DNA from: Candidatus Helarchaeota ASGARD archaeon Hel_GB_B
GTDB taxonomy: Archaea > Asgardarchaeota > Lokiarchaeia > Helarchaeales > HEL-GB-B
Reading direction: 5' to 3'
DNA length: 32,000 bases
Assembly (NCBI GenBank): GCA_005191425.1
Contig: SUPR01000018.1
Location: 10,854 to 42,853 of the forward strand
The translations under genes were made by a program, and so were the position numbers. Shown here piece after piece: positions 5,251 to 21,602 of this stretch. Numbering within the stretch: the first letter of the stretch is position 1; every line of letters starts with the position of its first letter. Below the pieces are notes generated by a model. That model had not been told where the DNA came from. It saw only the letters and a program-made list of their open reading frames with translations, and did not search any database.

Positions 5251-6464
5251 TCATTTTTTATTTAAATTTATAATATCTAATTTATCTGAAAATTTATTAA
5301 ATAAATCATCAGATATTTCAAGTCCTGTTAAAAACATTTTTGCAAAGAGTTCTTTATTTTCAGAATTTTCAAGAGCCCATTTAATCAGTAAATTTGAAAA
5401 TTTATCTAAATCTGATATCAATAAATCTCTAATTAAAATTTGATTTGCAAAACTTTTTTTTATATTTCTTTGTTTCCACTTATCTTGATATCTTTTGAGC
5501 GACTTTTTCGAATAATCGTCATCTTCAATAGCTATCACGGCAGTTTCTCCAGCAAATTTTCCGGTTATAAATGCATAATGAATTCCTGCTCCAATCATTG
5601 GTAATACAAACCTTGATGCATCTCCTACTGACAGTATACCGCTACCGTATGTCTTTCCTTTAATACCCGCTAATGGAACAGGATAACTTAGTTTCCAAAT
5701 AATTTTGGGTTTATAAAATTTTTGTTTTATAAAATCTTGTGCCATAAATTTTTCTAAATAATTTATAGGATTTTCTTTTTTTGACCCCCACATTCCTATT
5801 CCGATGTTTGCTTTTCCATCACTCATAGGGAAAATCCATACATAACAATCAGGAGCAAATTTATTCGAAAAAATTAACTGGTCTAATTTAGAATTTTCAA
5901 TATAACCTTTAACAATTGCCGCTGAACATATTGCATAATCACTTTTTTTCCATTGTTTTCGTAGTCCAGCATCAATTACTATTTTTGATCCAACTCCATC
6001 CGCAGCAATGACAATTTTAGACCTAATTTCTTTTAATTTACCATTCTTATCTCTTACTTTAACTCCAGAAACATTTCCATTTTTAATTAAGACTTTGTTT
6101 ACAGTAGTTTCAGTTTCTATTATTGCTCCTGCGTCAAGAGCTCTCTCTCTTATATGCTGGTCAAAAGTTTTCCGGTCCACAACATAATCAAAATAATTTG
6201 GTTCATTAGTATGATCTTTATAATTTATTGTCAATTCTTTTCCTGTAGAAGATCTTAAGGAAAATCCATTAATTATACCTTCAGCATATTTTTTAGAAAG
6301 TTTGAACTCTTTTATACACATATGCGGGACGCCGCCACCACATGGTTTACGCCAAGGAAGCTTATTTTTTCAAACATTATTATTTTTAACCCAGCTTCAG
6401 CAATTATTTTAGCAGCAGTCGACCCTGCCAAACCTGCACCAGAAATTATTACATCATACATCAT
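5251..6464 (-). pseudogene. Geranylgeranyl reductase family FAD-dependent oxidoreductase (about 404 aa) interrupted by a one-base frameshift at about 6365-6370; pseudogene or sequencing indel
   Basis: Upstream frame from 6464 gives MMYDVIISGAGLAGSTAAKIIAEAGLKIIMFEK (FAD GxGxxG). Adding one A to the A6 run gives NKLPWRKPCGGGVPH, in frame with the 356-aa track ORF (DRKTFDQHI, VIAADG, YVWIFP, VGDAS, GAGIHYA). Confidence 0.85.
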
Positions 6465-12621: not shown

Positions 12622-13605
12622 ATGAGTAAATCGGAAACTCTAAATGATGAATTAAGAAAATATATGCGAATTTTAGATATGAGGAAGGTGAAAGTTAGAG
12701 GCTGCGCAATAGTAGACTCAGATGGACTAATAATTGCCTCAAAAATAAAAGGAACAGAAAATGAAATGGCAGTAGGGGCAGTTACTAGTGTTCTTTCAAG
12801 TTTAAGTGAACGGATTAAAGAAGAATTCAATTCAGGATTATTTCGAAATGCAATGATCGAAACTAATGAACTTTTATTGATTTTTACGGGGATAGGCAAT
12901 ATAGCAATTTTAACAACTATTGCTGAAGTTGGAGCTGAAACAGATAATATAAAACCATATGCAAAAATTTTTGCAAATAAAATTAATAATATACTCACAG
13001 GTAAAGTAGAAATTAAAAAAGCTGCACCAAGTACCGTTGAAATAGATAAAAAGAAAAAAGTAGTCCACAAATTTATAAGCAAAGGTCTCATTTTAGGTGA
13101 TTATGCTGTAGGTAAAACCTCAATTTTAACTCGATTTACCCAATACAAGTTTACAGCTGAATATAAACAATCACTTGGAATTTCAGTTGTTAAAAAGGAA
13201 TATTTTCTTAACAATTATAAAAATGAATGGACTGAAGTAGACTTGGTTTTGTGGGACTTGGCGGCACAAATTAGAGATATGCATGTAAGGCATGATTATT
13301 ATGCTGGAGCAGATTTTGTTTTGATATTATTTGATGTAACTAGGCCTGAAACAATGGACACAGCATTAAATTGGTATAGAGATTGCTATAAAACTCTTTC
13401 GCAAGATTCAAAGAGTAAAAGAGAGCCAGTGTTTATTTTAGTAGGAAACAAGATTGATTTACCAAGAAAAGTTGAGAGATCTGAAGGAGAAACGATGGCT
13501 AAAAGCATTGGAATTCCTTATATTGAAACAAGTGCAAAAACTGCTGAAAATGTTGAAGATGCATTCAAAACAGTAATTTCTAAATTTGTAAATAAAGTAA
13601 CTTAA
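12622..13605 (+). CDS. Roadblock/LC7 (MglB-like) domain fused to a Rab/Ras-like small GTPase
   Basis: N-terminal AIVDSDGLIIAS...MAVGAVTSVL...AMIETNE...IFTGIGNIAILTT is a roadblock pattern. The C-terminal domain has G1 GDYAVGKTS, G2 YKQSLG, G3 WDLAAQ, G4 GNKID, G5 ETSAK. Confidence 0.9.
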   Translation: MSKSETLNDELRKYMRILDMRKVKVRGCAIVDSDGLIIASKIKGTENEMAVGAVTSVLSSLSERIKEEFNSGLFRNAMIETNELLLIFTGIGNIAILTTIAEVGAETDNIKPYAKIFANKINNILTGKVEIKKAAPSTVEIDKKKKVVHKFISKGLILGDYAVGKTSILTRFTQYKFTAEYKQSLGISVVKKEYFLNNYKNEWTEVDLVLWDLAAQIRDMHVRHDYYAGADFVLILFDVTRPETMDTALNWYRDCYKTLSQDSKSKREPVFILVGNKIDLPRKVERSEGETMAKSIGIPYIETSAKTAENVEDAFKTVISKFVNKVT

Positions 13606-18387: not shown

Positions 18388-19146
18388 ATGGTAGAAAATG
18401 ATATAAAAATAGTATTGAAGGATAACTATAAAGAAGTTAAATCACCTACAGTTATAGTCGGACTACCTTCAACTGGTTTAGTAGGATTAATATCCGCATT
18501 GCATATAATAGAAACAATGGAAATGGAATATTGTGGTTATGTCGAATCTAAAAGATTTCCCCCTATTATATTAATCCACAATTCTGAATTAGCGCTTCCA
18601 TTAAGAATTTACCAAAAGGATAAAATGCTAGTAATCATTTCTGAGATCTCACTTCCTACCGAGCCTGAAATAATTAATGATATTACAAGTGTTCTGGCTG
18701 ATTGGGTTAAAAGTTTAGACCCTGAATATATTTTAATTTTAAGGGGCAATCCTATCCCCAATAGAATGAATATTGAAGTTCCAAATTGTTATGGTTTAGG
18801 TACATCTGAAAAATTAAACAATTTACTTGATAAAGTAGAATGTGGTATAATGGAACATGGCATAATTACAGGTATCGATGCCTTACTAATGTGGGAATGC
18901 TCAAAACAAAATTTACCTGCAATTACACTTGCTACTGATGCATTTCCAAACTTACCAGATCCTGGGGCTGCAGCGGTCGTTATAGATAAAATCAATAAAA
19001 TTCTAGGAATTTATATAGATCCCGCCAAGTTAATTGAAAATGCTGAAGATCTACGTATTAAAATGCGAGATATGATGAAAAATACTGCTGCTCAACAAGC
19101 ACACTTGCAAAGTAAAGAGTTCCAAATTCCTCCAATGTATGGATAA
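18388..19146 (+). CDS. PAC2-family proteasome assembly chaperone (PbaA/PbaB-like) with a C-terminal HbYX motif
   Basis: VIVGLPSTGLVGLISA, PLRIY, PDPGAAAVVI, IDPAKLIENAE. The C-terminus ...PPMYG is an HbYX motif. Confidence 0.9.
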   Translation: MVENDIKIVLKDNYKEVKSPTVIVGLPSTGLVGLISALHIIETMEMEYCGYVESKRFPPIILIHNSELALPLRIYQKDKMLVIISEISLPTEPEIINDITSVLADWVKSLDPEYILILRGNPIPNRMNIEVPNCYGLGTSEKLNNLLDKVECGIMEHGIITGIDALLMWECSKQNLPAITLATDAFPNLPDPGAAAVVIDKINKILGIYIDPAKLIENAEDLRIKMRDMMKNTAAQQAHLQSKEFQIPPMYG

Positions 19147-19156
19147 AGGTGATTAT

Positions 19157-19639
19157 ATGTCGATTGAAAGAAAAAGAGATAAGAAAAATATTTTTGATGT
19201 AATTGATGAAATGTTTGATAGCCTACAAAGAGCAATTTCAAAAGAATTTGAAAGTTTTATGGATTTTGGCCATATAAATAGACCATTATGGAGCGTAGAT
19301 GAAGAATGCTGTTCTTTAGAGCCCCTTGTAGATATCAAAGCAACAAAAGATGAAGTAATAATTGTAGTAGATTTACCAAAAGTAAAAAATAAAAACGATA
19401 TTGATTTAAATGTTTCAAAAAATACAATTGAACTAAAAGCCGAACTTGAAAACAAAATTTGTTATGAAAAATGGGGCGGGTTCCAAAAAACAATAGAATT
19501 TTGTCAATTTCGTAAAACTATTAACCTCCCTTGGAAAATAGACCCAGATAAAATTCAAGCAAAGTTTAAAAATGGTATTCTAGAAATAAGAGCAAAAAGA
19601 ATTAATGAATTTAAATCCATTAAAATAAGTGATGAATAA
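19157..19639 (+). CDS. Small heat-shock protein (Hsp20/alpha-crystallin family)
   Basis: EPLVDIKATKDEVIIVVDLPKV, FRKTINLP...IDPDKIQAKFKNGILEI and a C-terminal IXI (SIKIS). ATG 19157 follows the RBS AGGTGA (the track starts at 19139). Confidence 0.92.
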   Translation: MSIERKRDKKNIFDVIDEMFDSLQRAISKEFESFMDFGHINRPLWSVDEECCSLEPLVDIKATKDEVIIVVDLPKVKNKNDIDLNVSKNTIELKAELENKICYEKWGGFQKTIEFCQFRKTINLPWKIDPDKIQAKFKNGILEIRAKRINEFKSIKISDE

Positions 19640-20939: not shown

Positions 20940-21602
20940 ATGGAACTAATTTGGGTTTGTCCTTTATTGGGAACTACCGACTATGTCCAATCTGAGAAAT
21001 CAGACTCAATTCGAAGTATAGCACTTAGACTATTATGGAAGTATAATGACCAAGTTATAGACTTATTAGGTGGGTCTTATGGCAATATCAGAGCAAAACC
21101 TAATATTTCATTGGTTTCTGTAAAAGTTTATCAAATAATTAAAGGTAGAAAAAAGCCTGTATCCTTAAAATCTACCTTAGAAGATATTGATATTGGAAAT
21201 AGAAAATTCTATTGGAACCCCGAACCAATTGGTGGAAATATCGAAGTTTTTACTCAACACATAAACGAATTAATAAATATGAATCAACATAAAGAATGGA
21301 AATTAATTGATGAAAATAATCTTAGTAAAGGTATTTATTCTACTTCAAAATGGCGGGACGGAATTAATCGAGTTACTCAAATATTATATGCATTTGGATA
21401 TCCAGAAAATCCCCCTACAATTAAAGTAAGTCCTCCTCCTAAAGACCCGTGCTTCGATAATGAAGGAATATTACATTTTGCACTATTTGGAAATAAATTG
21501 GTCTGGAAAAAGTATCATTCACATCAGAACCCCTTAGTATACTTAATAGATGAACTCTATGACAAATATGGACTTGATCTCTTCTTTGATTTGAAGACAT
21601 AA
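20940..21602 (+). CDS. Putative ubiquitin-like domain (ending PEPIGG at residues 94-99) fused to an E2/UBC-fold domain lacking the canonical catalytic Cys
   Basis: [16 protein letters not shown] resembles ubiquitin EVEPSDTIENVKAKI, and [23 protein letters not shown] resembles [34 protein letters not shown]...[12 protein letters not shown]...W resembles the E2 consensus YPxxPPxVxF...HPNIxxxGxICL...W. Alignment by eye only. Confidence 0.6.
   Translation: [220 protein letters not shown]

Follow-up and report, generated by a model that had tools for sequence, protein, structure and literature searches.

Ubiquitin-type protein tagging outside eukaryotes has, to our knowledge, been characterized for SAMP/UbaA, for the Ub-E1-E2-RING sets of Caldiarchaeum and Asgard archaea, and for the bacterial CBASS-Cap2, Bil and Bub systems. 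Type I Bub (formerly 6E.1) consists of BubAB (a ubiquitin-like domain, Ubl, joined to an E2), BubCD (JAB-E1) and BubE (DUF6527); BubCD cuts BubAB right after a conserved Gly, and the chemistry proceeds via oxyesters that involve a Tyr in the crossover loop of the E1 and a Ser at the canonical position of the E2, together with a His and an Asp (Ye, Gong, Chambers and Corbett, 10.1101/2024.11.21.623953). The antiphage Bil systems (BilABCD, Types I and II) employ a multidomain E1 that combines an inactive and an active adenylation domain with a Cys domain, as well as a diverged E2, the Cys of which is described as catalytic (Chambers et al., 10.1101/2023.09.26.559546). Here we analyze a gene located at 20940-21602 on the plus strand of a 32,000-nucleotide stretch of DNA (hereafter, the window) from contig SUPR01000018.1 of the Asgard archaeon Candidatus Helarchaeota Hel_GB_B, whose product, P0001, joins a Ubl to an E2-like domain. 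Most likely, this gene belongs to a cut-to-activate protein-tagging system that resembles bacterial Bub but is built around cysteine. More specifically, we consider it reasonably probable that P0001 is a pre-protein of a ubiquitin-like conjugation system that is cut after Gly99, with the Ubl then passed via an E1 to Cys171 of the E2-like domain. The assembly that contains the window is 93.7% complete, and we know of the host lineage solely from metagenome assemblies.

The relevant features of the gene are listed below; A2 and A3 denote the family alignments of 24 and 29 sequences, respectively.

20940..21602, plus strand: Ubl-E2-like fusion, putative pre-protein (P0001), whole gene; 220 amino acids plus stop (open reading frame list and translation)
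20940..21236, plus strand: ubiquitin-like beta-grasp domain, residues 1-99, ending in PEPIGG (AlphaFold2 model, structural matches)
21231..21236, plus strand: Gly98-Gly99, with predicted JAB cleavage after 21236 (conservation; cut by analogy with BubAB)
21237..21599, plus strand: E2-like UBC-fold domain, residues 100-220 (model of the C-terminal domain, structural and profile matches)
21249..21260, plus strand: F104-x-x-H107, start of helix alpha1 (A2, A3)
21444..21452, plus strand: D169-P170-C171 in place of HPN, with Cys171 as candidate thioester site (A2, A3, profile mapping)
21474..21476, plus strand: His179 at the canonical catalytic-Cys position (homolog alignments)
21570..21593, plus strand: clade-specific C-terminal tail GLDLFFDL, residues 211-218 (20 close homologs)

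The reading frame, its length, and the positions of the Gly-Gly, Cys171 and His179 had been given in a sequence-only reading of the window, and all of these check arithmetically; counted from the start, the Cys171 codon occupies 21450-21452, and the E2 hallmark [10 protein letters not shown] corresponds to residues 154-163. The Ubl-E2 fusion is genuine, and an assembly artifact is excluded, because metagenome contigs bridge the junction and 12 homologs are fused in the same manner. The bridging contigs, which cross the GG junction with zero substitutions or indels, come from three hydrothermal-vent metagenome runs that represent at most three samples, one of which may be the source of the window. 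Among the sequencing runs in which the sequence is present, no RNA run was listed. The 12 full-length fused homologs, 54-85% identical to P0001, are encoded in other metagenome-assembled genomes (MAGs) that are named Helarchaeota, Lokiarchaeota or Promethearchaeota. Searches with the single P0001 sequence against Pfam, NCBIfam, PADLOC and the PDB sequences yielded nothing meaningful, the protein scoring below every Pfam threshold. A full hidden Markov model search over 1.84 billion cluster representatives retrieved 38 proteins at E-values up to 1e-3, among which are fused forms of 200-260 amino acids, longer fusions, lone Ubls of about 105-118 amino acids and lone E2-like proteins of about 115-128 amino acids. 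In the ESM Atlas, bacterial clusters of YukD-UQ_con fusions emerged as feature matches (0.81), which we regard as no more than leads.

Both domains adopt the folds that the sequence-only reading had led us to expect. The AlphaFold2 model of the whole protein, built from a 20-sequence alignment, has a predicted local distance difference test score (pLDDT) of 73.7 and was compared, using VIA, with 48,161 solved chains. Residues 1-99 are arranged as beta-beta-alpha-alpha-beta-beta-beta, and their best fold match is the Ubl of parkin (Z 9.4, root-mean-square deviation 2.6, 74 aligned positions), followed by SUMO, FAT10, ubiquitin and the Rad23 Ubl at Z 8.2-9, that is, a beta-grasp. Residues 100-220, arranged as alpha-beta-beta-beta-beta-alpha-alpha, match E2s in the same model (Ubc8, Z 8.5; Leishmania E2, Z 8.2). 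When modeled alone from a 29-sequence alignment, the C-terminal domain reached a pLDDT of 88.8 and a predicted template modeling score of 0.82, and its best 50 solved-structure matches (Z 9.0-6.6) all belong to the UBC superfamily, spanning the E2, UEV, RWD, Atg3/10, UFC1 and BubB classes. The highest scores are those of the UEV-like domain of VPS37A (Z 9.0, also the top Foldseek match at E 4.2e-4), Ubc8 (8.8), the UEV of Tsg101 (8.5) and Mms2 (8.2), with UFC1 at 7.5 and BubB (9eav_D) at 7.0; these Z scores are tied within noise and therefore establish the UBC fold without deciding on activity. The modeled domain lacks the last two helices of E2s. An Atg3/Atg10-type identity was also considered, given that a relative from the Asgard genome G070 carries an HPC motif; it was set aside because the matches to Atg10 (Z 7.8) and Atg3 (Z 7.5) are no better than those to ordinary E2s and because the HPC Cys of Atg3 and Atg10 is taken as the canonical position.

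The internal di-glycine that the sequence-only reading had placed at the domain boundary is where the split orthologs separate exactly. Seven close homologs consist of the E2-like domain alone and start straight after the GG column, with a Ubl gene directly upstream in their loci. For example, in L010, a 107-residue Ubl (5649-5972) that ends in PEPIGGR is encoded 28 nucleotides upstream of a 125-residue E2-like gene product, and in L013, the gene for a 104-residue Ubl (5694-6008) ending in AEPVGGTSSDE overlaps by 8 nucleotides the gene for a 123-residue E2-like protein; L015 has the same arrangement. The PEP[IV]GG motif is invariant in the close clade, and Gly99 is nearly invariant across the family. 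In the stand-alone Ubls, the GG is followed by 1-5 residues (R, L, TSSDE, IMYLT or VPYI), such that the Ubl would have to be trimmed to expose the GG in every form of the system. Of the 19 members of the window clade, 7 encode the two halves separately, and in the E2-domain tree the split and fused forms interleave within this clade (SH-aLRT 99), with at least two label changes, the starred branches leaving a single origin possible. Because fused and split forms interleave on the tree, the covalent Ubl-E2 link is dispensable. The Ubl combines a beta-grasp fold, a GG that can be exposed and an E1 linked to the family, as would be expected of a conjugatable modifier.

Profile searches of the entire contig that includes the window found no matches to ThiF, Prok-JAB or UQ_con (RING genes were not searched for), which extends to the whole contig the absence of E1 and JAB genes that had been noted for the window. 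In relatives, the gene, or the split pair, is accompanied by JAB and ThiF (E1) genes:

Asgard genome G002: fused gene, then a 659-residue JAB-ThiF fusion
Asgard genome G070: fused gene, JAB, ThiF, JAB
G294 (of the same order as the genome of the window): contiguous genes for Ubl, E2-like, JAB (350 residues) and ThiF (361 residues)
Uncultured Chloroflexia bacterium (L016), 11.3-Mb chromosome: HD-CE protein, fused gene, 711-residue JAB-ThiF fusion
L017: HD-CE protein, fused gene, JAB, ThiF
L018: Ubl-E2-like-JAB fusion, then ThiF

The partner E1s comprise one family of 304-377 residues with a single ThiF domain, and share the nucleotide-binding Gly motif and two invariant CxxC pairs; a Cys, which belongs to a GAC motif, is present in the crossover region of 7 of the 8 partner E1 sequences. 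At the N terminus, archaeal and bacterial E1s alike (L033 10069-10400, L016, L017 and L018) carry an additional stretch of about 100 residues (QNPDT...PP..FT) that is conserved among them. The HD-CE gene is located directly upstream of the Ubl-E2-like gene in L016 (6345-7919) and L017 (6198-7907), and elsewhere these two loci encode a caspase-like peptidase, an NB-ARC-like protein, transposase and toxin-antitoxin genes, a setting that resembles a defense island.

In the genome of the window itself, both an E1 and a JAB, which the sequence-only reading had predicted to be encoded elsewhere, are found on contig C103 (L033), next to a split paralog that consists of a Ubl ending in PEPIGGIMYLT and an E2-like gene. 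The JAB on C103, encoded at L033 6895-7947, is a 350-residue protein (PADLOC JAB, E 8.2e-10) in which HEVGGY and HVH...S..D motifs are recognizable by eye. The E1 lies 3.2 kb further on, and two genes separate it from the JAB, one for a GNAT on the opposite strand and one for a class II aldolase; it is a 365-residue ThiF protein whose full length aligns with the operon E1 of L017 at 29% identity (E 3.9e-41). No further JAB or E1 of the C103 type was found in this assembly. The window and C103 Ubls are 33% identical, and the YW-x-PEPIGG tail is common to both paralogs. The E2-domain tree pairs the window clade with the operon-linked Helarchaeota clade as its sister group (SH-aLRT 85), and on a 107-kb Helarchaeota contig (L051), a fused paralog is located about 1 kb from a divergent Ubl/E2-like/JAB/E1 operon, with a radical-SAM gene in between. 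Judging from these comparisons, the window gene is a duplicated orphan copy of the Ubl/E2-like pair, and the simplest reading is that the pair was duplicated, with one JAB and one E1 presumably serving both pairs. The predicted complex of the C103 E1 with the window Ubl (residues 1-99) had a score of 0.00, which weighs neither for nor against binding.

The split paralog has a peculiarity of its own. In C103 (L033 6484-6849) and in G294 (L048 3551-3958), the E2-like gene is read in the +1 frame with respect to the Ubl gene and overlaps the Ubl tail that follows the GG, and in neither case does an ATG, GTG or TTG codon precede the conserved F..H helix. Possible causes are initiation at a near-cognate codon (ATC or ATA), +1 frameshifting that would yield a Ubl-E2 fusion, or errors in the MAGs; the last of these is less likely because the same pattern appears in two independent MAGs. 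A few kilobases from the C103 locus are genes for the beta and gamma subunits of methyl-coenzyme M reductase (L033 12504-14710). Helarchaeota have been described as alkane oxidizers, which these mcr genes would fit.

The active site of the E2-like domain was mapped onto those of known E2s by profile comparison. Searched against the PDB sequences, the A3 profile produced matches at E-values of about 1e-3, the best of these being the UEVs 6zm3_B, PfUev1a and Mms2; the next 15 or so are chains of UBE2L3, aligned from 47-113 of the profile to 47-113 of the protein at E of about 1.5e-3. The profile has Y61-P62-x-x-P65-P66, d76-p77-c78, G83 and h86 at the positions where UBE2L3 has, in what we take to be its numbering, YP at 61-62, PP at 65-66, HPN at 76-78, G83 and the catalytic Cys86, so that this mapping rests on the equal aligned ranges together with that numbering. 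An E2 variant from the same genome (contig C128; UQ_con, 73.9 bits) that reads HPK...GQVHL aligns without gaps in the same register. In these alignments, D169-P170-C171 sits on H-P-N and His179 on the catalytic-Cys column, which upholds the rewired active site that the sequence-only reading had proposed. The C128 variant (L003, approximately 58831-59121) is encoded in a canonical ubiquitin locus and likewise has a His at the catalytic-Cys position. As for domain profiles, UQ_con did not match P0001 and matched 3 of 24 relatives weakly (best E 0.014). Prok-E2_E (PF14462) produced no match at E up to 1 in the 24 family members; a search of the window's genome with the same model also found no match, though its control matched nowhere either.

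Cys171 is retained in 22 of the 24 sequences of A2 and in 28 of the 29 sequences of A3, and is thus, along with Gly99, nearly invariant family-wide, the sequence-only reading having named the conservation of both as a check. No other Cys is conserved and no Ser or Thr stands out, which makes Cys171 the best nucleophile candidate in a comparison that covered Cys, Ser and Thr; Y154 and Y210 are conserved as well. The sequence shared by P0041 and G070 has HPC at the DPC position, consistent with a putative descent from HPN. His179 is invariant in the 20 close homologs; in the wider family, this position is occupied by H, K, D, N, S, G or M, never by Cys, and because it is unconserved outside the close clade, His179 is a clade feature rather than a required catalytic partner. 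Other residues that are invariant in both A2 and A3 are F104, Y154, P158-P159 and W189; H107 is invariant in A3, and P155 and P198 are invariant in at least one of the two alignments. Our guess is that F104-x-x-H107 might serve in E1 docking. A zinc site formed by H107, C171, H179 and H195 was considered and rejected given that H179 and H195 are unconserved family-wide. The C-terminal tail GLDLFFDL is present in all 20 close homologs and has low pLDDT in the models, and other clades stop about 8 residues earlier; this acidic-hydrophobic tail might dock partners that are encoded elsewhere.

Taken together, these observations point to a mechanism that starts with a pre-protein. By analogy with BubAB, a JAB would cut after Gly99 and free the Ubl; the E1 would adenylate Gly99 and then form a thioester with it; the Ubl would then move to Cys171 of the freed E2-like domain, where Cys171, at the position of the HPN Asn, would lie on the strand that faces the canonical Cys position (His179); and the E2-like domain would hand the Ubl to targets without an E3, as has been proposed for bacterial Bil. 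The sequence-only reading had left open two options, (a) a precursor that releases a conjugatable Ubl plus a UEV-like reader, and (b) a self-contained Ubl-E2 that uses the shifted Cys171 for thioester chemistry. One half of each appears to hold: from (a), the precursor cut after the GG, in view of the JAB/E1 linkage and the split orthologs, and from (b), probably, the thioester E2, in view of the near-invariant Cys171. The released C-terminal domain is probably an active E2 that uses Cys171 rather than a UEV-like reader. A fuller picture, which we advance more tentatively and would not quite bet on, is that of a thioester E2 whose catalytic Cys has moved across the active-site hairpin to the HPN Asn (HPN to HPC to DPC). 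The host, an Asgard archaeon, would then have two paralogous Ubl/E2 pairs that share a single JAB and a single E1, and one of these pairs would be made as a self-contained pre-protein from a gene outside the operon.

Several observations weigh against this interpretation. There is no JAB or E1 gene near the window gene, and the use of the C103 enzymes in trans is deduced from the paralogy, from the tail common to both paralogs and from the synteny seen on one contig. Alignment by hhalign of the family profile with two canonical E2s of the same genome gave low probabilities, 1.7% and 27.5%, and the 27.5% alignment deletes the HPN loop and pairs Cys171 with the canonical Cys; set against the same-span UBE2L3 alignment and the ungapped alignments with the UEVs and the HPK...VHL variant, this mapping appears less likely. 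Two long relatives, P0039 and P0046, carry Arg or Ser in place of Cys171. Finally, a Cys in the HPN-Asn column is also found in non-catalytic UEVs (LPC in Mms2, MSC in PfUev1a) that are the best sequence matches of the family, and therefore Cys171 alone is no proof of catalysis.

The last point leads to the most substantial of the alternatives, one we regard as unlikely, namely, that the C-terminal domain is a non-catalytic UEV-like module, an adaptor that binds the Ubl, the E1 or targets, with a structural Cys171, and that the JAB frees the Ubl for direct conjugation by the E1, much as archaeal UbaA conjugates SAMPs directly. No family member has a Cys at the canonical catalytic position, the best PDB sequence matches (Mms2, PfUev1a and 6zm3_B) are UEVs, some of them with a Cys in the same column, and the UEVs of VPS37A and Tsg101 are among the top folds, the last two E2 helices being absent as in UEVs. 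However, the Z scores of UEVs and active E2s are within 1 of each other, and minimal E2s without the last helices (Cap2 and BubB) are active. The HPN-column Cys, where present, is not known to be conserved across UEVs, and the conservation of Cys171 exceeds what a structural surface residue in UEVs would need; such near-invariance argues against a UEV identity without disproving it. Furthermore, the domain is the sole E2-type component in operons where it stands beside an E1 with a crossover Cys. That P0001 joins ubiquitin to an Asgard ubiquitin reader of the ESCRT-I type, a UEV like that of Vps23/Tsg101 or Vps37A, is highly improbable. It would fit an Asgard host with eukaryote-like ubiquitin genes and the best Foldseek and VIA match, the UEV-like domain of VPS37A, but VPS37A leads the ordinary E2s by no more than noise (Z 9.0 versus 8.8-8.0), P0001 has no Pfam UEV match (among the 24 relatives, one matches at E 0.049), no ESCRT genes adjoin any examined family member, the partners being JAB and E1, and the family is present in bacteria.

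Another possibility, which we deem rather improbable, is that the orphan fused copy stays uncut and acts as a full-length protein with a Ubl domain, perhaps by regulating the C103 system, by serving as its decoy or by shuttling to the proteasome. Apart from the lack of JAB and E1 in the window and the clade's own GLDLFFDL tail, what speaks for this is the neighborhood: genes for PAC2 (proteasome assembly chaperone family) and HSP20 are located just upstream (window 18388-19639, plus strand; L050 4430-5678), and the order PAC2-HSP20-TIM barrel-fused gene-CxxCxxCC is conserved in L050, the closest relative. This synteny is, however, confined to close relatives, L010, L013 and L051 having other neighbors; the halves are separate in the 7 of 19 clade members mentioned above, so linkage is not required; and the GG, Cys171 and the tail that faces the E1 and JAB are invariant. 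Elsewhere in the window, a gene at 12622-13605 (plus strand) joins a Roadblock/LC7 domain to a small GTPase of the Ras/Roc type, as has been reported for Asgard archaea.

The family is represented, at strong E-values, in 6 of the 301 sampled Asgard species genomes, and is also found in bacteria, including a Chloroflexia bacterium. Its patchy occurrence, together with the gene neighborhoods in bacteria, would fit an accessory function in stress or defense. Should the thioester form on Cys171, the UBC fold can have its catalytic residue relocated, which bears on the interconversion of UEVs and active E2s; E2 catalysis would then have a third chemical solution in addition to the canonical Cys and the Ser of Bub, and the family would be an archaeal branch of Bub/Bil-type systems. 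The arrangement of the E2 active site is undescribed in the literature searched. The coexistence of fused and split forms with an orphan paralog amounts to a natural experiment on placing a tag and its E2 in a single chain.

Compared with known systems, the family shares with Type I Bub the Ubl-E2 fusion with a conserved Gly at the junction, the combination of a JAB with a ThiF/UBA5-like E1 that has a single adenylation domain (the two being fused in G002 and in the Chloroflexia relative), and the minimal UBC fold without the last two helices, as seen in the match to BubB. In contrast to Bub, the E1s of this family have a crossover Cys and the E2-like domains have their Cys in the HPN-Asn column, the canonical position being variable, and the window locus encodes one beta-grasp domain, with no adjacent partner genes or JAB-E1 fusion. 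BubE/DUF6527 (PF20137) had no match in the window's genome nor among the called neighbors of the relatives. With Bil, the family shares the gene order Ubl-E2-JAB-E1 (G294, L051 and C103), the apparently Cys-based chemistry, a short Ubl tail that the JAB is predicted to remove, and the absence of an E3, but differs from it in that the partner E1s have a single ThiF domain. The PADLOC models of Bil gave weak BilC matches for the JABs and none for the Ubl, E2-like or E1 proteins tried.

Like the UEVs (Mms2/Uev1, Tsg101 and VPS37A), the E2-like domain has a UBC fold that lacks both the C-terminal helix pair and a Cys at the catalytic position; unlike it, UEVs come without dedicated E1 and JAB partners and are not fused behind a Ubl that ends in GG. 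With canonical E2s (UQ_con, PF00179, of which there are three in the window's genome), it has in common the YPxxPP strand, the Gly hairpin, the downstream Trp and the overall fold, and differs in that HPN is replaced by DPC and that His179, at Asn+8, takes the place of the catalytic Cys. The sequence-only reading knew of no characterized archaeal protein with this arrangement, and our literature search indeed found no paper that describes this Ubl/E2-like family; its novelty is nevertheless limited by the bacterial precedent of BubAB (10.1101/2024.11.21.623953). The interpretation given in the sequence-only reading seems largely right, albeit with that precedent, and the E2 active site is unusual. 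The family, small and patchy as it is, adds a Cys-based relative of the Bub layout that spans Asgard archaea and bacteria.

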